Source: Desulforegulaceae bacterium | Lineage (GTDB): Bacteria > Desulfobacterota > Desulfobacteria > Desulfobacterales > JACKCP01 | NCBI GenBank assembly: GCA_034006035.1 | Contig: JAVETN010000001.1 | Span: 228,392-252,391 of the forward strand | Length of the DNA stretch: 24,000 nucleotides | Direction of reading: 5' to 3' | Part shown: positions 121 through 17,030 of the stretch, in pieces | How the letters are laid out: every line of letters starts with the position of its first letter | Numbering within the stretch: the stretch's first letter is position 1 | Notes under the pieces: model-generated | Database searches by the model: none | The model's input: only the letters and a program-made list of their open reading frames with translations | Told to the model about the DNA's origin: nothing | Program-made: the position numbers and the translations under genes

Positions 121-2376
121 TTAAAATAAAGAGTTGATAAAACAGCTTGAACTTCCGCTTGATGATTTCATAGGTTTTGGATCTGGGACATTGTAATATT
201 CACTTGTGATGGCTATTCCTCCTTCTGATTCAGCAGAAAAAAGAAGGGAATCGCTTAAGGTGACTTTCAAAACTTTTCCTCTTGAAGGTAATTCTTTTTT
301 TAGAGTTCTATTAAAACTATAGATATTTATTCCTTTATCGGTTCCCGCATAAATAAAATCTTTACTTGCTGAAATTGTATTTACCTTTGTTTTGGCATCA
401 ATTCTATTTGTTTGTATAAGGTCTGTGCTGTTTAATGTATAAATAAGCTTTCCTGCTGCTACAAAAAGAGTTGAATTTTTACAATAAATATCTGTAATTT
501 CATTTTCGGGATTAAATTCTTCTGCTTTGAAAAGAAGGTAAGGGGCTTCAGAATTATCAAGACTTAAACTTTTAAGAGTTTTATCAGAGCCTGTAAAAAG
601 AGTTTTTGAATTTTTATCAATAAATAATGACTGAAATTTTTGGTCCTTTTTAAAAGTTTCTCCAACCGACAAAATTTCAGAATTTTCATATTTATAAATT
701 TCAATTCCTTTTTCAGTCCCAAGATAAATGTATGGTTCATTAACTGCCAATGAAAGAGGCGTTGAGGTAATATCAAATGATTTTTCAATTTTAGGGTCTG
801 ATTCAATATTTCCAAAAAGTAAAATTTTGTTTTCACTTACACCAACAAAACTTTCTGAGAATTTTTTAATGAAAAGAGGGTTATCTTTTTTAATCAATTT
901 AATCAGTTTTAATTGTGTGTCATCAGATAAATCAAAAAATAAAAACCCTGAGTTGCCAGATTTAGAGCTGATTGCGGATAAAATGTTTTTGTTTTTTTCG
1001 ATTTGGGAAAATGAGTAAAAAGGATTTGTTGATTTTACTGTGCTGGGCTCTGAATTGACTGGGACATTAATTTTTGAAATACCCTTTGAAATATCAGAGA
1101 TAAAAACTGAGGCGTTTTCATGTGTTAATGAATCATATTTTAATGAATAAGAATAGCTGAACCCGTTTTTATATTCTGTAGTTTTATAAATATTTACCCC
1201 TTCACCATCTTTGTCTGAAGTTGTGTTTGATATCACTGAGTAGTCGACAATTTGCAAGCCTTTTTCACCATCTGCAATAAAAGCCAATGAGCCGGATTCA
1301 TTTAGATCTAAAGAGTTCCCTGCTAAAATATCCTGGCTTCTTCCTAGATTCTCAGGCCTTTTTTCCCCTTGATTTTCAAGTAAATTCCCTTTATCATCAA
1401 ACACTTTAAACTTAAACAAAGCTGTTTTTTGATTATTCTGGTAGTCATAGGGACTTGTAATAAAAATAAAAATATTCGACTCAATTTCTTTAGCTTTTAT
1501 ATCTTTAGCAAGACTTATTGTGTTAAAATTAACTATTCTTAGATCCCTTTTAGATACTGGTTCAGGTTGGTCTTGAATTTTTTTTAATTCTTCAATTTTT
1601 TCAGGAGAATCAGGAAGAGGAGTGTTAATCGGCAACTGAGTATTTATAAGAGCTGTTTTTTTCTTATCCGATTGTTTGTAGTCTTTTGTTAGATCAAAAA
1701 TTTTTAATCCATAATTACGATCAAGAATTGCTAAATAATCTTTTCCACCAAAGGAGAAAAAATCAATGTCAAAATATCCCCCTGTTGTTAATTCTTTTTC
1801 TGATAAGCCGTTTTGCCTATAACCGCCTAAATATTCGAATTCCAGGTTGTTAGCTCCTTTATCTACTTTAACTATTCTGAAACCATAGTTATAATCTGCA
1901 ATATAAAGATAGTCTCCGTTAAGAGCAAGGCCATGAGCGTCTATTTCAGCTAAGCCCTCCAAGGTCTTTCTTGGTTTACCTTTGAGGAAGCCTGGATCAA
2001 CACCAATGCTTTTAATGTTTTTTATTTCATCTTCGTTAATGTTTTTAATATCTTTGTCGTTGTAATCATAAACAAAAACCCCTGATTTACCCGCAGCTAA
2101 ATATAAGATTTTATTTGTATTATCAGTAATAACAGCGGTAATGGAATTGGAAGGACTTATATCAAAAGAACTTTTGAGGTTTAATTCTTTGTCATAAATT
2201 TTCAATATGGTTCCAAGGCCATGGAAAACATAATTGTCATCTATTGCCACAGCGTCATCTGAAAAATGAGGCCAACTATTAGTGTTTAATAGTTCAAATG
2301 AATGAATGGAAAAACTGGAAAATCCCATGAATAAAACAAGTAAAACTATTTTTTTAAAATTTAATTTGAGCTTCAA
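121..2376 (-). CDS. Secreted beta-propeller surface protein with LVIVD-like repeats and a C-terminal poly-Ser + CFINSLF tail
   Basis: 751-aa ORF with signal peptide MKLKLNFKKIVLLVLFMGFSSFSIHS. The unit Y-x-A-x3-4-G-(L/I/F)-x-I-x-D/Y recurs (YLYIADYNYGFRIVKV, LAILDRNYGLKIFDL, AFIADGEKGLQIVDY, IYLGTEKGIEIYKY, IYAGTDKGINIYSF). The start codon is TTG at 2376..2374, preceded by GAGGGGG. It overlaps the upstream gene by 23 nt. The protein ends SSSGSSSCFINSLF. Confidence 0.85.
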   Translation of the reverse strand: MKLKLNFKKIVLLVLFMGFSSFSIHSFELLNTNSWPHFSDDAVAIDDNYVFHGLGTILKIYDKELNLKSSFDISPSNSITAVITDNTNKILYLAAGKSGVFVYDYNDKDIKNINEDEIKNIKSIGVDPGFLKGKPRKTLEGLAEIDAHGLALNGDYLYIADYNYGFRIVKVDKGANNLEFEYLGGYRQNGLSEKELTTGGYFDIDFFSFGGKDYLAILDRNYGLKIFDLTKDYKQSDKKKTALINTQLPINTPLPDSPEKIEELKKIQDQPEPVSKRDLRIVNFNTISLAKDIKAKEIESNIFIFITSPYDYQNNQKTALFKFKVFDDKGNLLENQGEKRPENLGRSQDILAGNSLDLNESGSLAFIADGEKGLQIVDYSVISNTTSDKDGEGVNIYKTTEYKNGFSYSYSLKYDSLTHENASVFISDISKGISKINVPVNSEPSTVKSTNPFYSFSQIEKNKNILSAISSKSGNSGFLFFDLSDDTQLKLIKLIKKDNPLFIKKFSESFVGVSENKILLFGNIESDPKIEKSFDITSTPLSLAVNEPYIYLGTEKGIEIYKYENSEILSVGETFKKDQKFQSLFIDKNSKTLFTGSDKTLKSLSLDNSEAPYLLFKAEEFNPENEITDIYCKNSTLFVAAGKLIYTLNSTDLIQTNRIDAKTKVNTISASKDFIYAGTDKGINIYSFNRTLKKELPSRGKVLKVTLSDSLLFSAESEGGIAITSEYYNVPDPKPMKSSSGSSSCFINSLF

Positions 2377-3205
2377 AACTTACCCCCTCTTCATCTCCAA
2401 TACGCTTTTGGATTGCGAGTGAATATCTGTCTTTGGCAAAAAAACTGATTCCAAAAATCCACCCAATATTTTTTGAGGTTTTAATTTTTTCTTCATATAA
2501 AAAGTCTTCTTTTTCAATATAAAGTTTTTCATCTCCTGTTATACTTGAAACTCTTGGTCCCAAAAAAACTTTTATATGATCAGTCGAGCCAGTCAGTACC
2601 ACCCCTGCTTGAAGTTCATCAAGATCTGCTTCATAAGTTAGATTGTTTCTTCCCTGTTTTTTAGCATCTATGGTTATTTTATTGTATTTAAAATCAAGAT
2701 GGGCATTTAGATGTTTGAAAATTGAATTAACTTCTTTTTCAAACATTTTAAAGGCCAATCCTCCTCCAAAGCTGACCATTGAATCATCTTTTACATGAAA
2801 TTTACTTGGAGAGGTATACAAACCACTTATTGTTTCGTCCAGTATCATTAAGTCTGATTCAAATTTCCCAAAACCTGCTTTACCGTAAATTAAAAAATTG
2901 TCAAAAAATAAAAAACCTGCCTCAACTTCATTGAGATCAAAGGTATTATTGGAGCTCCTTGTTCTGGAATAATGCCTGTGATCATCTGTAGAGTTCTTGG
3001 GTTTGTGCAAGAATGTTTTTATTTGTTTTGGAAAATCGTTTTCTTGGTGATCTCTTCTGATAAGGATCTGAAACCCCGATAAAAATTTACTATCCTTGTT
3101 TTCAGTGTAAGAAAAAGAATTGATTCCTGAAACAGGGGCAGATAAAACTGAAACAGAACTTAATGGATATAATAATATAGAAATGAGTAACCATATTTTT
3201 TTCAA
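2354..3205 (-). CDS. Outer-membrane beta-barrel protein (OmpA/porin-like small barrel)
   Basis: 283-aa ORF with signal peptide MKKIWLLISILLYPLSSVSVLSA. It shows alternating amphipathic strands and a C-terminal VSFEAQIKF ending in Phe, typical of an OMP beta-signal. The start is TTG (3205..3203) with GGAGG 8 nt upstream. Confidence 0.8.
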   Translation of the reverse strand: MKKIWLLISILLYPLSSVSVLSAPVSGINSFSYTENKDSKFLSGFQILIRRDHQENDFPKQIKTFLHKPKNSTDDHRHYSRTRSSNNTFDLNEVEAGFLFFDNFLIYGKAGFGKFESDLMILDETISGLYTSPSKFHVKDDSMVSFGGGLAFKMFEKEVNSIFKHLNAHLDFKYNKITIDAKKQGRNNLTYEADLDELQAGVVLTGSTDHIKVFLGPRVSSITGDEKLYIEKEDFLYEEKIKTSKNIGWIFGISFFAKDRYSLAIQKRIGDEEGVSFEAQIKF

Positions 3206-3250: not shown

Positions 3251-3760
3251 TTAATCATTGAAAGATGATATTCTTATATTGCCTGAAATTTCGGCTTTAA
3301 ACCCTTCCACAGTGATGCTGCCAAAACTCTTCCCGTCATTCATGAATTTGACACCGTCTTCCCCTTGAATTGTTATTGATCCAATATGGTATCTGTCTAT
3401 TTGGACCAAAGACTTGTCCAGTTCCACATTTATTCCACTGGTCAATCTACCTGTATAAGGATCAATTGAAGTGGTTTGATTTATGGAAACTGGATTGTCG
3501 AGGAAGGTCTTTCCTGAATACACAATTCCTTTAATCAGCAAAGACGCAGGATTCCCGTCGGTGCCGTCGTCATCCCTGAAAATTAAGTTCTCTGCAGTCC
3601 AGTCAATTCCAAGAATATTGTCACTGCTAATTCTAATTCCTGACTGTCCTGTCAAGGTCTTCATTTTTTCAGGAGAAACCGGCGAAAGAGCAATGGCTTG
3701 TCCAGCGGTAAGGATTATTATAGATACCATTATTGTTGCTATGTATGAAAACTTGGTCAT
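3251..3760 (-). CDS. Small secreted GQxG-motif protein (fifth paralogue of the cargo family)
   Basis: The ORF track starts at a TTG at 3799, but ATG 3760..3758 has a perfect AGGAGG 6 nt upstream and yields a clean signal peptide, MTKFSYIATIMVSIIILTAGQAIA. After the signal peptide comes SPEKMKTLTGQSGIRISSDN and later DDDGTDG. Both motifs are shared with the genes at 10746..13886. Confidence 0.8.
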   Translation of the reverse strand: MTKFSYIATIMVSIIILTAGQAIALSPVSPEKMKTLTGQSGIRISSDNILGIDWTAENLIFRDDDGTDGNPASLLIKGIVYSGKTFLDNPVSINQTTSIDPYTGRLTSGINVELDKSLVQIDRYHIGSITIQGEDGVKFMNDGKSFGSITVEGFKAEISGNIRISSFND

Positions 3761-3794
3761 AGCTGACCTCCTATCTGTAAGATCAAATCTCACA

Positions 3795-4110
3795 GGCAAC
3801 CCGGCTAGCCTTAAATTAATAAGGTCCCGCAGCTTTCCGTCCCGGAATTACTTCCGGTTTGGCTAAAGAGGGCGGCCCGGCTGACCATAAATTCTGGCCC
3901 CGTGGCTTTCCGTCCCATGGTCACCCAGTGGTTTGGCTAGTTATTCTGACTCTCTTGGCAACTCGGCTGACCTGAAAAATTCAGGCCCCGTAGCTTTCCG
4001 TCCCGGGATTACTCCCGGTTTGGTTTTTACAAAGTGTACAGGTGGCTAGGCTGACCTTGAGTAAACAAGGTCCCTTGGCTTTCCGTCCCGGAGTTACCTC
4101 CGGTTTGGCT
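3795..4110 (-). repeat. Four tandem copies of a GC-rich structured RNA element in the 5' leader of 3251..3760
   Basis: Units lie at 3795..3864, 3871..3938, 3957..4025 and 4041..4110. The minus-strand consensus is AGCCAAAC-[P1 hairpin with GNRA loop]-GACGGAAAGCY-RYGGG-[P2 hairpin]-CAGCC. P1 variants are CCGGAG-GUAA-CUCCGG, CCGGGA-GUAA-UCCCGG, CCGGAA-GUAA-UUCCGG and CCACUGG-GUGA-CCAUGG, so the stem changes are compensatory. Unit 4 is about 57% G+C by hand count, against AT-rich flanks. Confidence 0.75.
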
Positions 4111-4155
4111 CTGGTATCCTTTGGTTTGAATTTCACCCTTAATCGTTTTTTGCCT

Positions 4156-4205
4156 CCATGCAGATTTTTTTATTTTCATAAAAAGATCTGCATGGCAGTT
4201 TTTTT
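4156..4205 (+). terminator. Strong hairpin plus T-run; canonical intrinsic terminator only in the plus orientation, function unclear
   Basis: ccatgcagat (4156..4165) pairs perfectly with atctgcatgg (4186..4195), and T/A pairs extend the stem inward. A T-run at 4199..4205 follows on the plus strand. On the minus strand the stem is followed by AGGCAAAAAACG, with no U-run. No plus-strand gene lies upstream. Confidence 0.4.
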
Positions 4206-4257
4206 CAAAGAACAGTTCTTACCTGAACATTGCTTTTACAGCAATTGGCCTGAAGCC

Positions 4258-4287
4258 GGAACAAAGACCTGATAATTTAATCAGGCT
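4258..4287 (-). terminator. Weak candidate terminator after the TolB-like gene
   Basis: Minus strand: CCUGAU-UAAAUU-AUCAGG (arms 4280..4285 and 4268..4273), followed by UCUUUGUU. The stem is short and the U-tract imperfect. Confidence 0.3.
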
Positions 4288-4364
4288 AAGTCTTTATCTA
4301 ACAAGCTAAATCTTAACTTTTATAGATAATAAGAAAAAGAGCCTTAATTGATTAATTATCTGAT

Positions 4365-5846
4365 TTATTTAATTATACATTGATATTTAACAAAATCCAA
4401 TCCATTTACACCAAGAGAATGAAATTTGTTTTCAGATTCAAAAATTATTGGAAATTTTGATATAAAATTGTCTATTGGTGTTTTTGTTTCAATACCGTCA
4501 ATATTTAAGATCCATTTTTTATCATCATGGCTTGCACAATAAGCAAGGCGATTTCCTTTGGGACTGAACTTGGGCAGGCCGGTGATAGCCTTGTATTTTC
4601 TTCCCTCATTTTCATTTTTTACCATTACAACGTTTTTTCCATCAAATGCCATATAGGCAATTTCATTTTTTACAGGATTAAATATTGGCTGTTTTACATC
4701 AAAATAGGCTTTGCCTTCTTTTTTATCCCAAACTACAAACCATCCCTTTTGTTTTAAAAAAGCTCTATAAGCGTAGTTTCTACCATCGGTTGAAAACTTA
4801 ATAAGACCTGAAGAGTCGTACTCTTTTTCTTTTTTACCGTTTATCACAATTGTGGGTTTGTCTTTTTTTATTCCCGGATATCCGTATGAATTTCCAGTAT
4901 CAGAATATGCAATAGGACCAAGAGTATCGAATTTGAATTCTTTTTTTCCGTTTACAACCATCTGCCAGTCTTTTCCTGTGTTTGCAGGATAGGAAAGAAT
5001 TGTTCCTTGCGGGTTGTAAAAAGGTTCGCCAATGGTCTTGTAGGGCGGGTGTTCATTAAAGTTTTCTAGCAAAATGAGGTTGTCTTTATCATTTTGAACC
5101 ACACAGGCGAAATTGCCCAATTTGGAAAATTTTAAAAGTATGGCATTTTTATAAGGTTTTGATTCTTTTTCATCAATAAAGACCTGCCAGCCATTGTCCT
5201 TAAAAGCTATGAACCCTAGCTTTGAAGAATCAGGGCTGAAAACAAGTTCATTTATATTTTTGAAAGGCCCATATTTTTTGTCCTGGCAAATTACATATCC
5301 TTTGTGTCTGCCTTCAAAGGCAATATAGGCCAGTCTTTTTCCGTCAGGACTGAAAACAGGGTCATTTTTAAATCCGTCAAAACTTTTGCCTTCTCTTCCA
5401 TTTATTACAACAAATTGTTTGTCACCTTTTTGGGCTATATAGGCAAAGTTTTTACCATCATTACTTGTTACAAGATTGCCTGTACCATCATATTTTTTTT
5501 GTTCCTCCCCATTGATTACTGCAAAATAATTGGAGTTAGAAATTGCTGTAAAAGCAGAGATTCCTGAAAAAGGAGCAAAAAATGGGGTGCCTTTCCCAAG
5601 GCTTTGATAGGGTCCATAGACTTTTGAATTTATCTGGGCAAACATTTTTTTATCTTTTAAAAGGGTTATTCCTAGTTTGTCGTAATCAGGAAAGTTTGAG
5701 GAAATATCAAGAATATTTGATTGCTCTGGAGGTGTTGATAAGCTTATTATTTTTTCATTTATTTCAAGGATTTCGGCATTAATCAGGGGGGAATAAATTA
5801 ATGACAGGGCAAAGACAATGGTTGGAACATTAAATCTGATTTTCAT
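4365..5846 (-). CDS. Periplasmic TolB-like (PD40/WD40-like) beta-propeller repeat protein
   Basis: 493-aa ORF with signal peptide MKIRFNVPTIVFALSLIYSPLINA. A unit of about 45 aa repeats: FSPDGKRLAYIAFEG, FSPDSSKLGFIAFKD, SNDGKNFAYIAQKG, FSTDGRNYAYRAF, FNPVKNEIAYMAF, FSPKGNRLAYCAS. Each is followed by (V/I)INGKE-x-K-x-(Y/F)D. Confidence 0.8.
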   Translation of the reverse strand: MKIRFNVPTIVFALSLIYSPLINAEILEINEKIISLSTPPEQSNILDISSNFPDYDKLGITLLKDKKMFAQINSKVYGPYQSLGKGTPFFAPFSGISAFTAISNSNYFAVINGEEQKKYDGTGNLVTSNDGKNFAYIAQKGDKQFVVINGREGKSFDGFKNDPVFSPDGKRLAYIAFEGRHKGYVICQDKKYGPFKNINELVFSPDSSKLGFIAFKDNGWQVFIDEKESKPYKNAILLKFSKLGNFACVVQNDKDNLILLENFNEHPPYKTIGEPFYNPQGTILSYPANTGKDWQMVVNGKKEFKFDTLGPIAYSDTGNSYGYPGIKKDKPTIVINGKKEKEYDSSGLIKFSTDGRNYAYRAFLKQKGWFVVWDKKEGKAYFDVKQPIFNPVKNEIAYMAFDGKNVVMVKNENEGRKYKAITGLPKFSPKGNRLAYCASHDDKKWILNIDGIETKTPIDNFISKFPIIFESENKFHSLGVNGLDFVKYQCIIK

Positions 5847-7647
5847 GGTTTATCTGATCCTTTTCTACTTTTTTATCTTTTTTAAATGGATTTAATTTTT
5901 TTAAAAATTTTTTTACTTTACCTGCAGCGTGGTGGAGCATTTCCTGCTGATGATGCAGCATTTCCATTTGAACAGAAAGGGGCATGGTAACTCCAAAAAG
6001 TGCAATATAAAGATAGGTTTCCTGCTCATAATCCAGCCCTGCATAGGGATTGTAAACTATTTTGGTAAAATCTGTTGAGTTCATATTGGTGCTTGAGTTG
6101 TTTGGAACTTTAAGTGAATCATTAAACAAATAGCCAAAGCCAAAATCCAGGGTAACATTTTTAGGCAGATGAAGGGAAAATCCAGCAGCATAAAAAGTCA
6201 TATCAGGGAGAAAATAAAGTGCATCAATTTTATCTTTTGGAAGAGATGCAGGTCGAAATTCATAACCGCATCTTAAAGTAAGCCAGTCTTTTGGATAAAC
6301 TTCAAGACCAACTCCCCAATGCCAGGTATCTTCCATTTCCCTTTTAACAATAAGATTATTATCTCCGCCTGTATATCCAAGAAGTTTAGCTATCCTGAAA
6401 AGCTGAATTCTTTGATCAAAAGTAAATTTATCTTCTTTTAAAGCAGCCCAGTTTGACCAGTGGAGATCTGCTGTGATCTGAATTTTTGACCAGGGTTTTA
6501 GTTTTATACCCATATCAATTCTTCTTGGAAAAAGCTGGGTTGCTGTCACTCTTCCAGTTTGAGAAGGCACTGCTTTGTAGGGCATATCAAGCATCCCTGC
6601 TGTTGTCATTGTATATTCTGTGCTTCCGTTCCAGGCAATCTGTCGCTGCCATTGTTCACTATAGGTAAATTTGTATTTTCCTGAAAGTTTTGCTTTTGCC
6701 TGACTCTGGTAAGAAAGGCCAAATCCAAACCAATGGGTTGGTTCCCATAAAAGACCAAGATTTACCGAAGGGGTAAAGTCATCTCTTAGGTCCATTTCCA
6801 TGCTTGTGTTGTGCTCATAGGGACCAAGTCCGCCTCCAAGCCAGGGGGCTGGAAGAGTCAATTGTGAAACAACAGGTATTTCAAGATCTCTTGTTGCATC
6901 ACCAATAACCCTTGTAAGTCCGACAAGCTCGTTTGGGGTTCTTTGATCAAGGGATATTCCCATTGCTGTTTGTCCAAATCCCACTGAAATTCCAAGTGAG
7001 AGTTGGTCTGAGGCTTTATAGCTCAAAGTTGGAGCAGCATAAATAAGATGCTGAAGGTAAAGAGATTTACATCCAAAACGAAGAGGATCCCCTGGATCAT
7101 TATGGGTCATCCCTCCTCCGTAGGGAGCGTAGTTTGTGTATGCAAAAGTCCACTTTGAGTCAGGCTTTCTATGGGATAGTCCAAGGCTCACAGCAGCAAG
7201 AAAATCTATTGGACCAAGAAAAGGGATGTACATTTTGGTTGAGGAGTTTGTGCCTTTTGTATTCCTTAATGGATCAGGGCCTCCATGGTTTGAATCCGGG
7301 TCATTTATATTAGGTTCAGCATTTGGCCCCCATTTGTCGCCCATAAAACCTTTAAAGTCTTTATTTTCTTTAAAGCTCCCTTTTCTTTTAATTATAGGTA
7401 TACCAAAACCGTTGGAAAACATTGCTCCTTCATCAATTTTTGATAATCCTGCAGGATTGAAATGAGCAGACATATGACCAGGAGGAGAGGCTGTGCATGC
7501 ATTTGCAAGACCTAAAGCTCTTGCATCAATTGCAGGGTTTTCATTGAAGGTTGCCAATGTTTCTTTTGATAAAAACAAAACAAGAACAATTGTAATTAAA
7601 AGTTTTTTTATTCTCATGTTTTTTGTTTTTGGGCTAAGGAGTTTCAT
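5830..7647 (-). CDS. FadL/OMPP1/TodX-family outer-membrane transport barrel with an unusual basic/His-rich C-terminal extension
   Basis: 605-aa ORF. Its N-terminal region ARALGLANACTASPPGHMSAHFNPAGLS matches the FadL hatch-domain pattern (G-x-A ... NPAG-L). The body is long and beta-strand-rich. An alternative start is M11 (ATG 7617..7615, giving MRIKKLLITIVLVLFL); neither start has a clear SD. It overlaps the next gene by 17 nt. Confidence 0.8.
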   Translation of the reverse strand: MKLLSPKTKNMRIKKLLITIVLVLFLSKETLATFNENPAIDARALGLANACTASPPGHMSAHFNPAGLSKIDEGAMFSNGFGIPIIKRKGSFKENKDFKGFMGDKWGPNAEPNINDPDSNHGGPDPLRNTKGTNSSTKMYIPFLGPIDFLAAVSLGLSHRKPDSKWTFAYTNYAPYGGGMTHNDPGDPLRFGCKSLYLQHLIYAAPTLSYKASDQLSLGISVGFGQTAMGISLDQRTPNELVGLTRVIGDATRDLEIPVVSQLTLPAPWLGGGLGPYEHNTSMEMDLRDDFTPSVNLGLLWEPTHWFGFGLSYQSQAKAKLSGKYKFTYSEQWQRQIAWNGSTEYTMTTAGMLDMPYKAVPSQTGRVTATQLFPRRIDMGIKLKPWSKIQITADLHWSNWAALKEDKFTFDQRIQLFRIAKLLGYTGGDNNLIVKREMEDTWHWGVGLEVYPKDWLTLRCGYEFRPASLPKDKIDALYFLPDMTFYAAGFSLHLPKNVTLDFGFGYLFNDSLKVPNNSSTNMNSTDFTKIVYNPYAGLDYEQETYLYIALFGVTMPLSVQMEMLHHQQEMLHHAAGKVKKFLKKLNPFKKDKKVEKDQINHENQI

Positions 7648-7661
7648 TTCAAATCTTTAAA

Positions 7662-8807
7662 TTAGAGTTTAAAATCAAAGGGTATGCTTAAACTAAAACT
7701 TACATCTGAGTTACTATTGAAAAGTCCTATATTTAAACTTGTATTAACTGAGCGGGTGCTTGAAATTCTCCAATTTGTGCCTATGGAAAGTGAAGATGAA
7801 TAAGATGTGGGAGAAGTGCTTTTTCCTATGTTCCTCCAATAGTAATCCGTTGAGTAGCTATATGTATACTGAAACCCCACACTAACTGAAACAAGATATG
7901 ATAGGGAATAACCCATCCCAAGATTGGCACTTATTTGGTTTCCCGGACTTACTTTTTCAATATAAATTCCCTGTTCTTTTTGTTCTTTGTCGGTATTGTA
8001 CTTTGCATCGTCCACATCCATATTTTTGTAAAAAGAAATTCCGCCAAAGGCAATAACCGGGTCAATTGATTTGCTGAAATTTGCACCGGCAAAGACAGTG
8101 TAGTATCCATTTCCTATTGCAACCTCATCATCACCGTCCATTTTATAGGGATTGTCTCCAAGGGGGACAATTATCCCTGCATTGAGAATTGTTGTTGGAA
8201 TTCCTTCTCTTGGCTTGAAGGGTTGGTATTGGATGTTAAAGCTTGGGTCTCCTATTCCACTTCCGTTTTTTGAACCTTTTTGACTGTCTATATATTCATA
8301 GGAAAAGGGGATATTTGAAGAAAGGGTGAGGTTTTTTAAAATCGGTACTTTAAATGAAAGAGAATTGGAAAGTTTATGGGAGTTTAAATGCTTTACCATG
8401 GTGCTTGTTCTTCCGTTTTCATCTTCAACTGATTGCAATTGGTCATAGGTGTCTCCTGTATAGCTTATTGAATAGGAAATGTTTAAAAGACCTGGAGTTG
8501 CAAGAGTGTATTCACGGCCGGCAGCATCAAGAATATCTTCGTCTTTTTGTTTTTTTTCTTCATCAGTTTGTTTAAGCTCGCTCATTACTTCCGAAGCTTT
8601 TTGTTTTTTTTCAATCTCAAGTAAGAGCTGTTCAAGCTTTTCCAGTCTTTCTTTTATTTCTGGAGAATTTTTACGATCGATTTCATCTGCATTGAGGTTT
8701 GAATAAACTGGTAAAAGAATAAATAATAAAATTATTAAATAGAAAAAAGGAAGTTTTTTGGTTGCTAATTGAAGTTTTGTAGCCATTTGCCTTTGCTTTC
8801 CAATCAA
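7662..8807 (-). CDS. Outer-membrane beta-barrel with N-terminal coiled coil (FapF-like architecture), paralogue B
   Basis: 381-aa ORF. After the signal peptide comes a heptad-like charged helix (EIKERLEKLEQLLLEIEKKQKA), then AAGREYTL and an amphipathic-strand barrel containing a GIGDP motif; it ends IPFDFKL. The codon at 8807 is TTG. ATG at 8786..8784 (MATKLQLATKK...) is an equally good or better start. Confidence 0.8.
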   Translation of the reverse strand: MIGKQRQMATKLQLATKKLPFFYLIILLFILLPVYSNLNADEIDRKNSPEIKERLEKLEQLLLEIEKKQKASEVMSELKQTDEEKKQKDEDILDAAGREYTLATPGLLNISYSISYTGDTYDQLQSVEDENGRTSTMVKHLNSHKLSNSLSFKVPILKNLTLSSNIPFSYEYIDSQKGSKNGSGIGDPSFNIQYQPFKPREGIPTTILNAGIIVPLGDNPYKMDGDDEVAIGNGYYTVFAGANFSKSIDPVIAFGGISFYKNMDVDDAKYNTDKEQKEQGIYIEKVSPGNQISANLGMGYSLSYLVSVSVGFQYTYSYSTDYYWRNIGKSTSPTSYSSSLSIGTNWRISSTRSVNTSLNIGLFNSNSDVSFSLSIPFDFKL

Positions 8808-9904
8808 AGAATAAAATTAAAAGGTATTCTGAATTTAAAACTAAAATCTTCGTCATTATTTGTGAGCCCAATACCCAGTTCCATATAAATTTTTCTTTTT
8901 TCTGTGATTTGCCAGGCAGTTCCTAGCAAGAAAAGCGAGCTGGTGGTTGAAGAAGAAGAAAGTTTTCCTCTTCCTCTCCAAGTATAATCAGTTGGGAATT
9001 GATAAATAAATTTACATCCAAAGCTTATGGATACATTTTCTGAAATAACATAGCCCATTCCAGCATTAAAACCAGCCTCATCTCCAGGGTTTATTTTTTT
9101 TAAATATTCACCTGTTTCGCCAAGGTAAATTGAGTTTTTAAAATCCAGTCTTGAGTTTTTAAATTTGTATGAGTAAAAAAAGCTTCCATAAACAAGGGTA
9201 GGGGAGACTTTTTTACTCATCCCAAGTCCTAGGTTGAATGTATAAACACCTTCTCCTGTTGGGAATTCTGTTTGGGGGTTTATTTCATAGGGGCTTCTTC
9301 CCATGGGAAAGGTAAAACCAGAACTTATTGTAAACCCGGGTTTGTTGTCTTGTTTTTTGAAGGGCTGGAATAAAATTCCCATATAGGGGTCTCCAAAATC
9401 ATCCATATCAGCAGTTTCCCCCTGAATATCATCATAGATTGATACAAAAGGCAGATCAATTAGAAAGGAAAGATTGTTTTTTAAAGGATATTCAATTGAA
9501 ACAGTATTTACCATTCTGTGAGTTGCTTCACGCTCAAATGAAGTCCCTGATTCTTCTGCTGAACTTATTTGGTCATAGGTTTTTCCATAATATGAAAAAC
9601 TATAATCTACTCCGACTACTCCTTTGGGTCTCAGTGTATATTCACGGCCCGCAGCAGATAAAAGTTTTGAATACTCGTCTTGTTCAGATAAAAAATCTTT
9701 TTTGGTTTTTTCGGTCAGAGTTTTTTTGTTTAGTTCTTCTGCACGTTTTTCAAGCTCTATGATTTGTTTATCAAGAAGGTCTTGGTTGATATCTATTTCA
9801 TCTGCAAAACAGGCAACAAAGGGCAGGGTTAAAAAACACAAGAAATAAAAAACATATAATTTGCTGAATTTATTGGCCTTGATCATTTTTTGTAAGTCTT
9901 CCAT
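8804..9904 (-). CDS. Outer-membrane beta-barrel with N-terminal coiled coil (FapF-like architecture), paralogue A
   Basis: 366-aa ORF, colinear with 7662..8807 (both have AAGREYTL; DFGDPY vs GIGDPS; the ends are RIPFNFIL vs SIPFDFKL). The coiled-coil segment is LLDKQIIELEKRAEELNKK. An alternative start at ATG 9886..9884 (MIKANKFSKLYVF...) forms an ATGA overlap with the C39 stop, suggesting translational coupling. Confidence 0.8.
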   Translation of the reverse strand: MEDLQKMIKANKFSKLYVFYFLCFLTLPFVACFADEIDINQDLLDKQIIELEKRAEELNKKTLTEKTKKDFLSEQDEYSKLLSAAGREYTLRPKGVVGVDYSFSYYGKTYDQISSAEESGTSFEREATHRMVNTVSIEYPLKNNLSFLIDLPFVSIYDDIQGETADMDDFGDPYMGILFQPFKKQDNKPGFTISSGFTFPMGRSPYEINPQTEFPTGEGVYTFNLGLGMSKKVSPTLVYGSFFYSYKFKNSRLDFKNSIYLGETGEYLKKINPGDEAGFNAGMGYVISENVSISFGCKFIYQFPTDYTWRGRGKLSSSSTTSSLFLLGTAWQITEKRKIYMELGIGLTNNDEDFSFKFRIPFNFIL

Positions 9905-10626
9905 GGTCCTGTTTCATCCAGCCTGTAGGTTTCAATTTTATGGGTTGGATCTATTGAGGGAGTCATCAGGGTTTCCTGAAATTCTTTGTCAATATATCTT
10001 AAATCTCTTCTTGAAAGCTTAAGGTTTGAGATTGTTTTTTCTTTATCTGCCCAGATGATGAACATTATATTGTCATCCCAGATTTTTTTAAATTTATCCA
10101 TTGAGTAGCTGGAATTCCCCAGGAAAGGATCAGCAAGAAAAACATGATCTTTATAAATTCCTTTTAAAACAACAAAATGTTTATAATTGTATACCTTGAT
10201 TGGAAGGATACAAGGCCAGTACTCATTGTTATTCAAGTCTTCCAGTTTAGCTTTGTAGCCCCCGCTTTTATAGCCTATGGCGTCGAGAAACTGCTGCATA
10301 TCCCATAAAGAAAAAGCTCTGAGTTGTCTAATCTGCTCTTTATCGCCAAATTCCATGAGACCTCTTATAACTTGTTTTTCGCTTAAGTTTTCGTTGAGAT
10401 AAAAGTTTAAAAGAGTTGCAAGAGCAGCAGAACCGCAGCTGAAATCATGCTCCTGCTTTACTATATGTCTGAAGTTTTCTTCAGTAAAAGGGATGATATC
10501 TTCTCTGATGCGAATTTCACCTTTATAGCCTGAAGAAAAAATAGCAATTTTTTTATCTGCTCCTGCTTCAGGAAAAAAATTTGGGATTAAAGCAATTAAA
10601 ATTGCAAAACCTATGGCAAAGTGCAT
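9883..10626 (-). CDS. Stand-alone exported C39-family cysteine peptidase (FapD/FilB-like), catalytic residues intact
   Basis: 247-aa ORF. Q58-x5-C64-G (VKQEHDFSCGSAALATLLNFY) matches the C39 oxyanion Gln plus the nucleophile Cys. H150 and D166 sit in KHFVVLKGIYKDHVFLADP, the C39 pattern H-f-v-V ... DP. It has a hydrophobic N-terminus (FAIGFAILIALIPNFF) and is not fused to an ABC transporter. Confidence 0.85.
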   Translation of the reverse strand: MHFAIGFAILIALIPNFFPEAGADKKIAIFSSGYKGEIRIREDIIPFTEENFRHIVKQEHDFSCGSAALATLLNFYLNENLSEKQVIRGLMEFGDKEQIRQLRAFSLWDMQQFLDAIGYKSGGYKAKLEDLNNNEYWPCILPIKVYNYKHFVVLKGIYKDHVFLADPFLGNSSYSMDKFKKIWDDNIMFIIWADKEKTISNLKLSRRDLRYIDKEFQETLMTPSIDPTHKIETYRLDETGPWKTYKK

Positions 10627-10745
10627 TTTTTTAATTAATCTTTTTTTAAAGTTTTTATGTTCTCATATCCTAAACACAATTTATCTTTCGGGCAACAAAA
10701 ATCTGCATTGAATCCTTGTTAATACAAAAAGTTTTTTATATAAAT

Positions 10746-11399
10746 TTAAGGCTGATCCCACCAATGGTTTGGAGCAAAAGCGTTTTGAATATTTCCTTCA
10801 CTAAAACCAAGAACAGAATGAATTCCCTGATTTCCTGCCTGGGGATTTAGAATAAGAAAAAAACCCTGTCTTTCTGAACTTGAGTCAAAAGAAAAGTTTT
10901 TGGAGCCCAGGTTTTCTCTTGAATATTCCAGCGGAGGAGAGTTCCCACCTTCAAGAGCTGGGTGAAATGTTCCTGTAAATGAGTTGAAATTACCGGAAAT
11001 GTTTCCATTGAGCATATTGGAACCTATTATAAGTCTTTTAAGGGTTGGATTGGCAGAGTTTAAATCGTCAAAATCCGCTTTTATAATAAGTCCGTCAATT
11101 GTTAAATTTGCAGTATTTGTTCCAATACTTATATTTGTCCAGTTTTGATCCCAGCCGTTTGCACCTTCTTTTGCATAATAGCCAAGCTTGATGGATTCAA
11201 TTTCTGTAAAGGTTTCAATATGGGTATTTAAAAATATTCTTGTTGTTGTGTTAGTGGTGGTAAAATCTGAAAAAGAAATTTGTCCTGTGGTTGTTTTCAT
11301 TTTTTCTTTTGAAAGTTCCTCAAGGGCAAAAGAAAAATTTACAAAAATACTGAAGAAAACAATTAGAATAAAAAGAAAGAATAGTTTAGTTTTAATCAT
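10746..11399 (-). CDS. Small secreted GQxG-motif family protein (divergent member)
   Basis: 217-aa ORF with signal peptide MIKTKLFFLFILIVFFSIFVNFSFA, followed by LEELSKEKMKTTTGQISFSDF. Its ATG forms a 4-nt ATGA overlap with the upstream stop (11396..11399). Confidence 0.8.
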   Translation of the reverse strand: MIKTKLFFLFILIVFFSIFVNFSFALEELSKEKMKTTTGQISFSDFTTTNTTTRIFLNTHIETFTEIESIKLGYYAKEGANGWDQNWTNISIGTNTANLTIDGLIIKADFDDLNSANPTLKRLIIGSNMLNGNISGNFNSFTGTFHPALEGGNSPPLEYSRENLGSKNFSFDSSSERQGFFLILNPQAGNQGIHSVLGFSEGNIQNAFAPNHWWDQP

Positions 11400-12292
11400 A
11401 GATTACCCAAGTTTCTTCCAGGCACTTCAATTGTTAGTCTATGTATATTTATTCCGTCAATTGCAACGGCACCAAAATCTTTATTTCCCAAGTGGATATT
11501 TTCAATTCTTAGAGAGCCAGTGATTGGGGCTGAAACATAAATAACTGGTTCTGTATCAGATCCTGTTGGATCATTGGTTGCTCTTTGTCCTATATCAAAG
11601 GTGGCAGGAGAGTTGGTTTTAAAATTACCTAATTTAAATTTCCCTGAAGGCTGCCAGGTTGAAGGGTTTTCAGGAATGCCTGAAAACGAATCTGCAATAA
11701 ATAGGTTTTGAAATCCAAGCCAGTTTCCATTGGCTTCCGGTCCGTAGTCAAATTTAAATGAATCTACCTTAAGCTGGAATCCTGTCTCAAAATCTATGCC
11801 TGAACCATGACCTCCAAAGTAAAGATTCCATTTTGGAAAACCTGTTCCTATGATCTCCATGCTTCCAATGGCTGATTGGTTAAATTCCAGTTCACCAATT
11901 TTAATAAAGGACTGAACCTCAAAATCATCAGATTCAATTGAAATATAGGGGTTTGGATATCCGCCTGAAGCTGGGTCAGAAGGGCTGGCTATATCAATGA
12001 GGATTTCTCCCATAATTCCGTCATTGTCAAAATCAACATTGCCTGTATTATAAGTGGTTAAGGTTTTTACGTTTTTAAAATTGAGATAACCCGGGGTTGG
12101 TTTATTTAAGTCATCAATTAATTTGATTTGTGAATCTTCATTGTAAAAAACTGCATTGTCAATGGCAATAGAAATACCTGCCTGGGCAGTTTGAGATTTT
12201 AACTCGTTTTCACTCATCAAGGATATTGCGAATAGACTTGAATTTGTCAGGCAGATAAAAATTATAATTGTAGTAAGGTTTTGTAAAAACAT
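11396..12292 (-). CDS. Small secreted GQAG-motif family protein
   Basis: 298-aa ORF with a hydrophobic N-terminus, then MSENELKSQTAQAGISIAIDNAVFY and DFDNDG. GGAAG lies 5 nt upstream of the ATG. Confidence 0.8.
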   Translation of the reverse strand: MFLQNLTTIIIFICLTNSSLFAISLMSENELKSQTAQAGISIAIDNAVFYNEDSQIKLIDDLNKPTPGYLNFKNVKTLTTYNTGNVDFDNDGIMGEILIDIASPSDPASGGYPNPYISIESDDFEVQSFIKIGELEFNQSAIGSMEIIGTGFPKWNLYFGGHGSGIDFETGFQLKVDSFKFDYGPEANGNWLGFQNLFIADSFSGIPENPSTWQPSGKFKLGNFKTNSPATFDIGQRATNDPTGSDTEPVIYVSAPITGSLRIENIHLGNKDFGAVAIDGINIHRLTIEVPGRNLGNL

Positions 12293-12310
12293 AAAGACTT
12301 CCTATTTTCT

Positions 12311-13036
12311 TTATTTGTTTGGACTTACTTCAACAGTGCCTCCAAAAATTACCTGGGTGGCAGGGCCCTTTTCAATTGTAAGAAGAGTCTGGTTGCTGTT
12401 CATTGCCTCAAAATCAGATCCAGTAAAAAAAACTATGCTTTTTGTTGAGTGTCCAGTTGTGGCTTCAATGGAAGGAAGTTTTGAAATAATTCCTCCTTTT
12501 ATAAGGTTTGGTTCCACTGGGAGAATCCTTGAAATCTCTTTGAGGCCTGAATTTATAACACCCATTGCTGTAAGAAGAGGGCAAAAGTCTGTTGTTTCAA
12601 TTATCAGGGGAGAAAAGTTAACTCCTTTTTCTTTTGTTGATTTCTTATTTTCTTCCCTGTGTATTTTATTAATTTCTGAATTATAATTTTTAATTAAATT
12701 TTTATTTAAACTAAGATTCCCGATTTGTTCACCAAAATCTTTTTTAAGTTTGGCATTGGAATATTTTCCAAAATCAGTTACAGGTTTGAAGTATAATCTA
12801 GAACCTTGATCATCTGAAATTATCTTTATTCCTGCTTTTTTAATTGAGCCGTATCCGTCGGTGTCAGTATAGATTATGGTACCATATTTAACTTTTACTA
12901 TAATTTCTTCTAGCTCAATTGCTATTCCAGCCTGGCCTCTTATTTTTTTCAAATCATCCTGGTGAAGTATTTCTTTTGAGAAACAGGGAAAAATAAAAAC
13001 AGAAAAAATAATTAATGTTGCAATTGTTTTTTTCAT
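12311..13036 (-). CDS. Small secreted GQAG-motif family protein (closest paralogue of the major-subunit candidate)
   Basis: 241-aa ORF with signal peptide MKKTIATLIIFSVFIFPCFS, then HQDDLKKIRGQAGIAIELEE and YTDTDGYG. Its C-terminus LLTIEKGPATQVIFGGTVEVSPNK parallels ALITIEKSGTSTMAILGGTLEIAPH of 13113..13886. GGAGA SD. Confidence 0.85.
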   Translation of the reverse strand: MKKTIATLIIFSVFIFPCFSKEILHQDDLKKIRGQAGIAIELEEIIVKVKYGTIIYTDTDGYGSIKKAGIKIISDDQGSRLYFKPVTDFGKYSNAKLKKDFGEQIGNLSLNKNLIKNYNSEINKIHREENKKSTKEKGVNFSPLIIETTDFCPLLTAMGVINSGLKEISRILPVEPNLIKGGIISKLPSIEATTGHSTKSIVFFTGSDFEAMNSNQTLLTIEKGPATQVIFGGTVEVSPNK

Positions 13037-13061
13037 TTTTTTTTCTCCTTGGTTCAGGTTG

Positions 13062-13095
13062 AAAAAAACCCCGCCTTTATATTAAAGACGGGGTT
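13062..13095 (-). terminator. Intrinsic terminator immediately after the major-subunit candidate gene
   Basis: Minus strand: AACCCCG-UCUUUA-AUA-UAAAGG-CGGGGUU (arms 13089..13095 and 13067..13073, with inner pairing), followed by a run of U (13062..13068 are A on the plus strand). It sits between 13113..13886 and 12311..13036. Confidence 0.75.
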
Positions 13096-13112
13096 AGTTT
13101 ATGACTTACTTA

Positions 13113-13886
13113 TTAATGAGGAGCTATTTCAAGGGTTCCACCTAGGATAGCCATTGTTGATGTACCTGATTTTTCAATTGTGATTAGGGCATGATTTGCG
13201 TTAAAGTGTTCCTGGTCAGCTGTTCCGTATGAATCTGTAACTATACCAGCAGCCGCATCCCAGGTACCGTTTCTTAATTTAATGGTTTTGAAATCTACTG
13301 TTGAATAGGTTTTGATTTCAACTGTAGGAAGACCGATTACAACACCACCAACTGCAAGAGCTGATGCAGGAAGAGTTGCTGCGTCCATTCCAGTTGTATT
13401 GTAGTTCCATCCAGCTGTAAGGGCCTTACATGTTCCAACATCAATTGTTAGTGGAGAAATACCTGTTGTAGTTCCTGCCATCTGGCCATTTGTAGGATCT
13501 AGAGTGCCACCGGCAATAGCTGCTGCAACACCAGCTGATTCGATAATACCAATGTCTTCTGTGTTACCAAATGTGGCTCTTAGTGCATCTACTCCATAAA
13601 TATCTGCATTAAGTATTGCATTTATTGTTATAAGTTTTTGCATTTCTTCTGCCTGGTCTATCATGATACCGGCTGCACCAGTCATTCCGTTTACACCATC
13701 GGTATCCCAGAATGTGCTGTCTGCTAAACTTTTTTGATAAATTACAATACCATCAACTGCAATAGAAACCCCAGCCTGACCTGTTGCAGATCTAAGCTGT
13801 GAATTGTCCATTTTTTCAAGTGCTGATGCTGCCATTGGCATGGTGAGAATTGCTGCTACTGCTAAACCTACGATAAAACGTTTCAT
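13113..13886 (-). CDS. Secreted Ala/Gly/Thr-rich GQAG-motif protein; candidate major structural subunit
   Basis: 257-aa ORF with signal peptide MKRFIVGLAVAAILTMPMAASA, then LEKMDNSQLRSATGQAGVSIAVDGIVIY and FWDTDGVNG. It is first in the block, with a strong SD (AGGAGGAG), its own structured leader and its own terminator. It is visibly more GC-rich than its neighbours. Confidence 0.85.
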   Translation of the reverse strand: MKRFIVGLAVAAILTMPMAASALEKMDNSQLRSATGQAGVSIAVDGIVIYQKSLADSTFWDTDGVNGMTGAAGIMIDQAEEMQKLITINAILNADIYGVDALRATFGNTEDIGIIESAGVAAAIAGGTLDPTNGQMAGTTTGISPLTIDVGTCKALTAGWNYNTTGMDAATLPASALAVGGVVIGLPTVEIKTYSTVDFKTIKLRNGTWDAAAGIVTDSYGTADQEHFNANHALITIEKSGTSTMAILGGTLEIAPH

Positions 13887-13940
13887 AAAAATCTCCTCCT
13901 AGACAGGTTAGTTAAAAAAAGTTTGTTCCAACCTACCAGA

Positions 13941-14028
13941 GGCAGCCTGGCCATCCTTAAAGTCTTTTCAAGTCAGTGCATTAAGGACCCGTTTGGCTTT
14001 CCGACCCCCGATTACCCGAGGTGTGGCT
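13941..14028 (-). ncRNA. Fifth copy of the two-hairpin RNA element, in the 5' leader of 13113..13886
   Basis: Minus strand: AGCCACA-CCUCGG-GUAA-UCGGGG-GUCGGAAAGCC-AAACGGG-UCCUUAA-(19-nt loop)-UUAAGGA-UGGCCAGGCUGCC. The order of elements is the same as in units 3795..4110. P1 contains U-G and G-U pairs that would be C-A and A-C mismatches on the plus strand. Confidence 0.7.
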
Positions 14029-14149
14029 TTTTCTTGGCATTTTTAATTTTGTTTCCGTTTGTTAAATTTAAAGGTTAATTCCTTTTCAGTATATAATCTT
14101 TTTGGCGGAAGGTTATCCTACTGATTTTTATTTAGCTACGGAAACACTC

Positions 14150-14190
14150 TAAATTAAAAAGAACAGTGTTTACTGCTTGAGTGAAAGATT
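14150..14190. repeat. Box A of a duplicated intergenic sequence (core TGTTTACTGCTT at 14167..14178)
   Basis: aaattaaaaagaacagTGTTTACTGCTTgagtgaaag resembles box B. It contains the near-palindrome AACA-G-TGTT. Confidence 0.5.
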
Positions 14191-14471
14191 CTCATAACCA
14201 GGGTTTTGATGTCAATAAAAAAAATAATAAAAAGTGGATTTTTTTTAGTCTTATTTTTAAATATTTGAAATTAATAGGAATAACATTGTTTATATTTCAC
14301 AGATTTTTAGTGTGAAAACTCTTTTTAAGAAATAAATTGGAACTTAGGGGTCATTTTGGAGGGGTGCTGTTAAATTTTTTAGTTTGGAGTTTGGGCTTTT
14401 ATTAGGATAAGTTTCAACTGGATTTGTACAAAAAATTGTTTAGGGAATCTGAGGTTAAAATACAAATAAAT

Positions 14472-14512
14472 TTAATTTAAAAAAACAATGTTTACTGCTT
14501 ATGTTCAAAAGT
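14472..14512. repeat. Box B of the duplicated intergenic sequence (core TGTTTACTGCTT at 14489..14500)
   Basis: aatttaaaaaaacaaTGTTTACTGCTTatgttcaaaag carries an 11-bp palindrome, AAACA-A-TGTTT. Both boxes are followed by shared words (aaataataaaaagt; ccagggtt), though in a different order. Confidence 0.5.
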
Positions 14513-14628
14513 TTTAAATTTAGAAATAATAAAAAGTTAGTTTGACTAACCTGATCCCAGGGTTAATTCCTGAAATCAGGTTGTTTATTGTGATGATTGT
14601 AAATTCAGTCAGTTTTTTTACTTAAAGA

Positions 14629-16910: not shown

Positions 16911-17030
16911 AGTATAGAATTTAATTTAATTCAAAGCTTGGTGCTTGGGTTTTTTATCATCTTTGTTGATTTATTAATATTTTTTTGGTTGTATAGTTGT
17001 TTACTCGAAAGGTTTAAGGAATAAAATTTG

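Follow-up and report, generated by a model that had tools for sequence, protein, structure and literature searches.

A gene block in a Desulforegulaceae genome that very likely encodes Fil-type outer-membrane export of DUF6160 proteins under cyclic-dinucleotide control

We analysed a 24,000-nucleotide (nt) stretch of DNA from a Desulforegulaceae bacterium (contig JAVETN010000001.1, positions 228,392 to 252,391; hereafter the window), whose minus strand carries 12 consecutive co-directional open reading frames (ORFs) running from 13886 to 121. The block very likely encodes a Fil-type system that exports DUF6160 proteins across the outer membrane under cyclic-dinucleotide control. In its fuller form, our preferred reading, which we regard as probable, is that the locus is the Desulfobacterota variant of a Fil-type system that secretes and assembles DUF6160/FilA-family subunits at the outer membrane, depends on Sec, works without an ATPase and is controlled by riboswitches. 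The Fil system is named in papers on vaccines and biofilms of Acinetobacter baumannii; work on Acinetobacter sp. Tol 5 identified FilA by Edman degradation and deduced that the Fil fimbriae are long curved fibres (PMC3498257, PMC11784438). We refer to five proteins that share the DUF6160-type leader as A1 to A5, and to two FilC-type barrels as C1 and C2. The features of the locus, in 5' to 3' order, are as follows.

14188..14215, minus strand: promoter candidate, sigma-70-like TTGACA-16-GAGAAT (consensus match), about 150 nt 5' of the leader aptamer
13938..14037, minus strand: cyclic di-GMP (c-di-GMP)-I (GEMM-I) aptamer in the 5' leader of the A1 gene (Rfam RF01051, clan CL00126)
13891..13943, minus strand: predicted expression platform of the A1 leader (minimum-free-energy and centroid folds)
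13113..13886, minus strand: A1, canonical FilA/DUF6160 protein and probable major subunit, 257 aa (Pfam DUF6160, NCBIfam FilA)
13067..13095, minus strand: intrinsic terminator or attenuator directly 3' of the A1 gene (13-bp stem with 6 G-C pairs, then a T-run)
12311..13036, minus strand: A2, full-length A1 paralogue (27% identity to A1), ending ...VEVSPNK
11396..12292, minus strand: A3, DUF6160-leader paralogue, 298 aa, with orthologues in most Desulfobacterota loci
10746..11399, minus strand: A4, leader-bearing paralogue, 217 aa, motif TTGQIS, with conserved orthologues
9883..10626, minus strand: FilB/FapD-type periplasmic C39 cysteine peptidase (NCBIfam FilB, FapD)
8804..9904, minus strand: C1, FilC/FapF-type outer-membrane barrel with a charged helical N-terminus (NCBIfam FilC, FapF); start possibly 9886
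7662..8807, minus strand: C2, second FilC/FapF-type barrel (NCBIfam FilC); start possibly 8786
5830..7647, minus strand: FilD-type barrel of the OmpP1/FadL family (NCBIfam FilD, Pfam Toluene_X)
4365..5846, minus strand: periplasmic PD40 (TolB-like) beta-propeller (Pfam PD40, NCBIfam TolB/TmcD repeats)
3788..4125, minus strand: four contiguous c-di-GMP-I-type aptamers 5' of the A5 gene (Rfam and our own covariance model)
3251..3760, minus strand: A5, short DUF6160-leader paralogue; probable start ATG 3760, after an AGGAGG ribosome-binding site (RBS)
2354..3205, minus strand: small outer-membrane beta-barrel (weak Pfam OMP_b-brl match; synteny)
121..2376, minus strand: secreted LVIVD-repeat beta-propeller protein, 751 aa (domain search; synteny)

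Each of the 12 products has a single hydrophobic 19-residue region, located at the N-terminus, in a Kyte-Doolittle scan used as a heuristic for signal peptides; a marginal internal hydrophobic segment in A1 (13113..13886) is the sole exception. These profiles fit Sec signal peptides and the lack of any membrane-spanning component, and searches of Pfam and NCBIfam found no ATPase, inner-membrane or cytoplasmic domain among the block proteins. An earlier note on this DNA, made from the sequence alone, had described 12 same-strand genes with export signals, without ATPase, inner-membrane or cytoplasmic parts, and their order, with a leader and a terminator belonging to the first; our analysis bears out this description. 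It had also listed three overlapping gene junctions, two of which stand: 11396..11399 is ATGA, and so is 9883..9886 provided that C1 begins at its second Met. The third, 8804..8807, reads TTGA, and C2 has an alternative ATG start at 8786. The unit had been drawn from 3251 to 13886; it is larger and continues past both ends, from about 14043 (riboswitch) or 14215 (promoter-like site) to 121. The promoter assignment at 14188..14215 is weak, because the region has no more sigma-70-like matches than shuffled sequence would give. At the other end of the block, a TTG at 3799, the alternative start of A5, falls within the last aptamer of the array.

The core of the machinery belongs to the families that serve the Fil system. 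The C39 peptidase matched the NCBIfam FilB model with an E value of 1.1e-56 and FapD with 3.3e-35; its Gln58, Cys64, His150 and Asp166 are invariant among 20 homologues, and it can be aligned to the double-glycine protease domains of LahT150 and PCAT1. The two barrels, which are 35% identical, matched FilC (C1, 4.8e-32; C2, 3.7e-42) and FapF (C1, 2.3e-17; C2, 4.8e-12). C2 also matched the crystal structure of FapF (PDB 5o67, E 1.3e-7), and its residues 54-59, R-L-E-K-L-E, resemble the trimerisation motif R-h-x-x-h-E described for FapF (PMC6173795). The FapD and FapF matches are significant, yet far under the equivalog cut-offs and weaker than the Fil matches. The earlier note's proposal of Fap/Fil-like machinery was thus sound, with a Fil homology that is clear but distant and a Fap homology that is more remote in the NCBIfam profile search. 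Its statement that the filA-F locus pairs a small subunit with a C39 peptidase was also correct, since NCBIfam describes FilB as a 'putative pilus system C39 family peptidase'.

Downstream of the FilC-type barrels, the 5830..7647 product matched FilD at 3.5e-92 and Pfam Toluene_X (PF03349) at 1.6e-40, with no sequence relative in the PDB at E <= 1e-3. A weak NCBIfam match to the PorV family (2.2e-8) covers its N-terminal hatch region. PorV is a FadL-family barrel within a protein-secretion system, as here, and a PorV-like role in cargo handling may be suggested for the FilD-type barrel by analogy only; the window holds no other type IX secretion components. Homologue searches with the PD40 propeller returned, past close orthologues, only generic PD40 repeat proteins. 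As a separate observation, the C-terminus of the FilD-like protein (5830-6000, minus strand) extends past the FilD profile in a Lys/His-rich tail of about 55 aa (...MEMLHHQQEMLHHAAGKVKKFLKKLNPFKKDKK...), which stands in place of the usual aromatic last residue.

The proteins to be exported belong to a recognised family, although the earlier note had called them unrelated cargo. A1 matched Pfam DUF6160 above its gathering score (9.5e-8) and NCBIfam FilA at 1.3e-5. Across the five GQ(A/S)G proteins, DUF6160 was matched by four (not by 10746..11399), with only A1 and A2 reaching the gathering score, and FilA was weakly matched by A1, A3 and A5. A1 consists of a Sec signal peptide, a 15-aa leader, the motif TGQAGVSI and a body that ends in ...LEIAPH-COOH. 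An alignment of 60 A1 homologues showed an invariant T-G-Q-A-G-V-S-I, the conserved blocks S-P-L-T-I-D-V-G-T-C and G-V-V-I-G-L-P-T-V-E-I, and a C-terminus ...M-A-I-L-G-G-x-L-E-I-A-P-H in which His is invariably last. FilA-like proteins of Pseudomonas, Marinobacter and related bacteria, encoded 5' of FilB, share the N-terminal pattern of A1 and end in ...V-W-G-H, ...I-Y-G-H or ...V-Y-A-H, so that leader, TGQxG motif and terminal His are common to the A1 protein and its gammaproteobacterial counterparts. The description of five paralogues needs a qualification: A1 and A2 align over their full length, whereas the others share only the N-terminal 30-100 residues. Within the window only A1 carries the terminal His, A2 to A5 having the leader without it. 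Since A1 also has its own terminator and the strongest RBS (AGGAGG), it can be read as the major subunit and the remaining paralogues as minor subunits.

A profile of the A1 subfamily, searched against 1.84 billion cluster representatives, matched 739 of them at E <= 1e-3. The AlphaFold2 model of A1 has a mean predicted local distance difference test (pLDDT) value of 81, with no segment below 50; residues 28-35 form a helix that is followed by an all-beta body. One of its homologues, P0013, is a 375-aa protein with 66% identity over half of the query; a transcriptome collection lists it under the eukaryote Chilomastix cuspidata, most likely through bacterial contamination.

The leader between signal peptide and body is the most constrained part of the family. 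The comparison covers 104 distinct DUF6160 N-termini: those of the aligned homologues, of gammaproteobacterial proteins and of orthologues of each of the five paralogues. Counting back from an invariant Gln (position -1, 100%), Leu, Ile, Val, Met or Phe occupies -15 in 90%, -12 in 95% and -7 in 95% of the sequences; -4 is Val, Ala or Ile in 87%, -3 is Thr in 88%, and -2 is Gly in 84% and Ala in 14%. The Gln is followed by Ala or another small residue and then by Gly at +2 (97%), and an A-x-A signal-peptidase site lies directly ahead of position -15. The leader thus keeps the hydrophobic -4/-7/-12 register of double-glycine leaders (reference register in PMC6363468), and the A1 model places a helix there. 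None of the 104 N-termini has the Gly-Gly, Gly-Ala or Gly-Ser of such leaders at -2/-1. We consider the 15-aa leader a likely C39 substrate and its removal by the C39 peptidase likely, judging from this pattern.

A comparison with PCAT/AMS leaders and peptidases (LahT, ComA, PCAT1; PMC6363468) shows both likenesses and differences. Shared are a helical leader, the hydrophobic -4/-7/-12 (and -15) positions, Gly at -2 and a homologous C39 domain with the same Gln/Cys/His/Asp active site. In contrast, the window leader stands behind a Sec signal peptide, so processing would be periplasmic; Gln stands at -1, a whole protein of 200-300 aa takes the place of a peptide substrate, and there is no ATP-binding cassette (ABC) transporter. 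A homologous periplasmic enzyme is FapD of Pseudomonas Fap, a C39 peptidase that is catalytically required for secretion and whose target is unknown (PMC5557850), whereas the window cargo displays an evident candidate recognition leader. Covalent polymerisation by the peptidase in the manner of a sortase was considered and rejected, as the acyl-enzyme would hold the leader and not the subunit.

The gene set is conserved well beyond the window. When one genome per GTDB species was scanned with a degenerate pattern, at least 594 loci with confirmed peptidase relatives emerged; 80 of these were fetched, and gene order was counted in the 76 with enough flank. In all 76, a FilC-like gene and then a FilD-like gene come after the peptidase gene; the FadL-like barrel is the counterpart of FilD and not, as the earlier note had it, an extra component. 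Conservation of the neighbourhood across Desulfobacterota, which the same note had proposed as a check, was borne out in the fetched loci, where orthologues of A1, A3 and A4 lie upstream of the peptidase gene. A linked orthologue of the PD40 propeller occurs in 16 loci of the Desulfobacterota type, whereas gammaproteobacterial loci lack it; in Desulfobacterota the gene lies downstream of FilD or, in Geobacter-type loci, upstream of the peptidase. The small barrel (2354..3205) is linked to the system in L001, L002, L005, L007 and L020, and the LVIVD propeller in L005, L007 and L020 (phmmer) and in L001 and L002 (Pfam gene tables). L001, from a Deltaproteobacteria metagenome-assembled genome (MAG), has the gene order of the window minus A2. 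Gammaproteobacterial loci instead carry a MalM-domain protein and other genes without a detectable homologue in the window.

Two sets of c-di-GMP riboswitches, overlooked in the earlier note, accompany the block. The aptamer 5' of A1 (13938..14037) scored 43.9 bits against RF01051 in a search of the whole window (gathering score 35, E 1e-5) and 49.6 bits (E 1e-10) against the related GGC model in a sub-region search, and it has G at the G20 column (G20 and C92 columns being assigned from Rfam variant models). Orthologous aptamers lie 5' of A1 orthologues in L001, L002, L005, L006, L007, L008, L012 and L020. In both the minimum-free-energy and the centroid fold, the 3' tail of the aptamer, CCUCU (13942..13938), together with GGUAGGUUGG is predicted to pair with CUAACCUGUCUAGGAGG, covering the Shine-Dalgarno sequence at 13900..13895. 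As ligand-stabilised closure of the aptamer would free the RBS, the modelled fold predicts an ON switch.

The second set is an array in the 565-nt gap 5' of A5, with units at about 4038-4119, 3953-4033, 3874-3952 and 3792-3873. Three of them exceed the Rfam gathering score (4038..4119, 53.9 bits; 3953..4033, 74.9 bits; 3792..3873, 56.9 bits), so that four aptamers of the window do so in total. The unit at about 3874..3952 falls under Rfam detection; it keeps all invariant core bases and helices and scored 80.9 bits with our own covariance model, built from the window aptamer copies. The five aligned window aptamers show compensatory changes at 10 of 23 predicted pairs. Core positions are 85, 87 and 74 nt apart, and the units are contiguous, with no room for separate expression platforms. 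Arrays also precede the A5 orthologue in L001 (four units, 18897-19235) and in L020, a Desulfobotulus MAG (five units, 15446-15850), and spacing is 72-91 nt across the three. When run on the fetched Fil-type loci, our model detected aptamers 5' of DUF6160 genes in many loci from Desulfobacterota, while gammaproteobacterial loci gave none.

The G20 column holds G in four of the five window aptamers and A in the one at 3953-4033, which has C at the C92 column. An A for G20 is typical of GEMM-Ib variants that bind cyclic GMP-AMP (cGAMP) or are bispecific (PMC6140456), and this aptamer is possibly cGAMP-responsive, going by that base. Only the second of the four units carries this change, so the array may respond to two signals. 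The same change with C92 kept occurs in L006 (~5275) and L007 (~7358), in the aptamer before the major subunit. Tandem c-di-GMP-I riboswitches have precedents such as the Bc3-5 triplet of B. thuringiensis (PMC4759541), which shares the aptamer class and the association with surface or adhesion genes. A 2022 survey listed 347 doublets and 12 triplets of this class, with multiple expression platforms (PMC9481103); the four to five units of the window, L001 and L020 go beyond these and offer a natural test case for highly cooperative RNA switches. Another arrangement was seen in Desulfoluna limicola, whose genome carries two Fil-type loci, L010 (2.06 Mb) and L002 (1.41 Mb): in L010 two tandem aptamers (~14758-14960) follow the FilD-like gene instead of preceding the peptidase gene, which implies a different order of cargo genes.

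Natural fusions within the DUF6160 family hint at how the subunits may be arranged. Six proteins (P0378, P0381, P0405, P0424, P0435 and P0436) contain two or three DUF6160 domains, with a signal peptide and leader on the first domain only. At the junctions, the C-terminal ...A-P-H is followed by three residues and then by G-(hydrophobic)-(D/S/N)-(I/L/M)-x-(hydrophobic)-D-D, the post-leader strand of single-domain proteins, which puts the domain boundary at the predicted processing site. As read from these sequences, the fusions show that the structure can accommodate domains joined head to tail by a very short link, and they agree with head-to-tail polymerisation of processed subunits without proving it. 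Together with the Acinetobacter literature and the layout of one major and several minor subunits, they lead us to infer fibre formation.

These elements can be combined into a working model of the Fil-type system in this bacterium. Binding of c-di-GMP to the leader aptamer would free the RBS of the A1 gene, and the terminator after A1 would keep the major subunit in excess over A2-A4. The components would cross the inner membrane via Sec, and cleavage after A-x-A would leave a 15-residue amphipathic leader on the subunits. The C39 peptidase would dock this leader through positions -15, -12, -7 and -4 and cut at or next to T-G-Q/A-G. By homology, the two FapF-like barrels, probably trimeric, would pass unfolded subunits over the outer membrane; more speculatively, the FilD barrel may anchor or hand over subunits and the PD40 propeller may hold them in the periplasm. 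Processed subunits would then join head-to-tail into a surface fibre, as suggested by Acinetobacter Fil fimbriae and the tandem fusions. A5, the small barrel and the LVIVD propeller would form a separate module gated by the four-aptamer array and so respond only to a sharp c-di-GMP threshold.

Several observations weigh against this interpretation. The system is known here from sequence alone, and all NCBIfam scores are far under the curated cut-offs (FilA 24.8 of 220 bits, FilB 192 of 475, FilC 112 and 145 of 630, FilD 309 of 970); the block proteins are therefore homologues of Fil components, not equivalents. The remaining window proteins had no NCBIfam match, and two proteins encoded downstream in a Pseudomonas locus and used as stand-ins for FilE and FilF, a MalM-domain protein of 393 aa and one of 476 aa, found no counterpart in the window at E values up to 10. 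At position -1 the leader has Gln, whereas known C39 substrates have Gly, Ala or Ser, which leaves the exact scissile bond and leader cleavage itself uncertain; a cut after A-G, two residues further on, would break the hydrophobic register. A profile search of PDB sequences found no relative of A1. Foldseek likewise found no solved pilin or fibre fold among PDB structures for the A1 model (best E 0.045, TM score < 0.2), the matches being insignificant long hairpins of gasdermin/MACPF pores and a cave 'pilus-like' entry at E 0.078. The ON logic depends on one thermodynamic fold, and the z-score of the whole fold is not significant. Finally, the Acinetobacter Fil fimbriae were deduced and not immunolabelled (PMC3498257).

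The same machinery could also serve a product that is not a fibre, with DUF6160 monomers or oligomers at the surface or secreted, where, together with the FadL-type barrel, they might bind hydrophobic compounds such as long-chain fatty acids, lipids or hydrocarbons, or take them up. This is unlikely in our judgement, though it has a coherent basis: the FilD-like protein is a genuine FadL/Toluene_X member, its Pseudomonas relative weakly matches the alkane-uptake protein AupA, and Fil-type loci are common both in the oil and lipid degraders Marinobacter, Bermanella and Oleiphilaceae and in the fatty-acid-oxidising Desulforegula, Desulfoluna and Desulfobotulus groups. The A1 model is unlike any known pilin, and the putative Fil fibres of Tol 5 were seen on triacylglycerol-grown cells; the same work, however, recovered FilA in the fibre fraction (PMC3498257). 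Genes for catabolism or fatty-acid activation are not linked to the system, either in the window or in related loci. The layout, one major subunit with a terminator followed by conserved minor paralogues, resembles that of a fibre system, tandem head-to-tail fusions occur in the family, and c-di-GMP control is typical for adhesive matrix components. A plain outer-membrane uptake operon for aromatic or aliphatic hydrocarbons seems very improbable. The Pfam matches that would support it (PF13557, Phenol_MetA_deg, at 7.6e-7 and 6.2e-7 on the two FilC-type barrels; PF03349 on the FadL-type one) are much weaker than the FilC, FilD and FapF scores and the match to the FapF crystal structure. There are no degradation genes nearby, the neighbours of the FadL-family barrel here and in related loci are secretion components, the linkage to a periplasmic C39 peptidase and leader-bearing DUF6160 proteins is constant, and c-di-GMP riboswitches take the place of a substrate-responsive regulator. 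The earlier note had named a hydrocarbon-uptake assignment as a possible refutation; this does not apply, given the far better Fil and Fap matches and the gene context.

Still less probable is the reading in which the GQ(A/S)G proteins are the subunits of a functional amyloid of the Fap type. The FapD and FapF homology would fit, as would an envelope-only, ATPase-free layout with Sec-exported substrates and a competent periplasmic C39 peptidase, as in Fap (PMC5557850), and a barrel with an N-terminal coiled coil and a motif of the R-h-x-x-h-E type, which in FapF belongs to a trimeric 12-stranded barrel (PMC6173795). However, Pfam and NCBIfam revealed no homologue of FapA, FapB, FapC or FapE. 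The window cargo is unrelated to FapB, FapC and FapE and lacks Asn/Gln-rich imperfect repeats, AlphaFold2 predicts a confident globular beta fold for A1, the Fil models outscore the Fap models, and the window has a FadL-type barrel in addition. A bolder proposal goes beyond the Fil-type reading, and we advance it only tentatively. Fil/DUF6160 could be a distinct class of surface filament, separate from chaperone-usher, type IV, curli/Fap, type V and sortase pili, in which leader removal by the C39 peptidase licenses passage through the FapF-like and FadL-like barrels and head-to-tail polymerisation, the C-terminal ...A-P-H meeting the freshly exposed N-terminal strand of the next subunit. A single-platform array of four to five aptamers would set the accessory module, which in Desulfobacterota would probably be the commitment step; if so, the array would be more switch-like than any RNA device described.

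Returning to the Fil-type system that we favour, its closest relatives are the Acinetobacter fil locus (filABCDEF; NF050077-NF050080) and those of Pseudomonas, Marinobacter and Bermanella. They share with the window the colinear order of DUF6160 subunit, C39 peptidase, FapF-like barrel and FadL-type barrel, and cargo with a Sec signal, 15-aa leader, TGQxG motif and final His. The window differs in having five subunit paralogues instead of one, a duplicated FilC barrel, riboswitches where the Pseudomonas Fil-like locus has a LuxR/MalT-type regulator, and a PD40 propeller, small barrel and LVIVD propeller in place of the MalM-domain and other downstream proteins of the gammaproteobacterial type. 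The earlier note's term, an undescribed system, is therefore too strong: the Fil fimbria had already been named and current profile libraries suffice to detect the homology, so systems of this kind are not new in principle. What the present locus adds is its architecture in Desulfobacterota, control by riboswitches with aptamer arrays of unusual length, a leader in canonical register that can be recognised as the probable peptidase substrate and, from the fusions, a hint at the geometry of assembly. No study of mechanism came up in literature searches on FapF-like systems, DUF6160 and the fil operon. The conserved cargo leader gives a candidate substrate for periplasmic C39 peptidases that can be tested directly, and the target of FapD is an acknowledged question (PMC5557850). 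With at least 594 peptidase relatives in GTDB species representatives, the system is widespread, and it takes a distinct, expanded form in sulfate-reducing Desulfobacterota, where the riboswitches tie it to c-di-GMP and possibly cGAMP signalling.

Some further features of the window were recorded in passing. The C-terminus of the LVIVD propeller protein (121-160, minus strand) has a Ser/Gly-rich stretch followed by C-F-I-N-S-L-F, which could be a sorting or anchoring signal. Between the PD40 propeller gene and the aptamer array, a hairpin with an 18-bp stem (4156-4195) is followed by a T-run on the plus strand, with no plus-strand gene nearby. Upstream of the A1 gene, a pair of motifs is duplicated at a distance of about 300-320 nt, one of 27 nt (14152-14178 and 14474-14500, 89% identical) and one of 14 nt (14222-14235 and 14524-14537, identical). 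A small palindrome, CAGTAAACACTG, is part of the 27-mer, one copy of which sits immediately 3' of the promoter-like site; the duplicated motifs may represent a site bound by a regulator or the duplication of part of a promoter. No better-than-chance match to a sigma-54 promoter was found near 13886-14640. A gene for a PAS-domain sigma-54 activator (17028-18749, plus strand) stands between large surface-protein genes and the Fil-type locus. The window's best match to a sigma-54-type promoter, TGGCATGGCTGTTGCA (23719-23734, minus strand, one mismatch), lies about 75 nt upstream of two large PKD/Big-domain surface-protein genes (19846-23645, minus strand).

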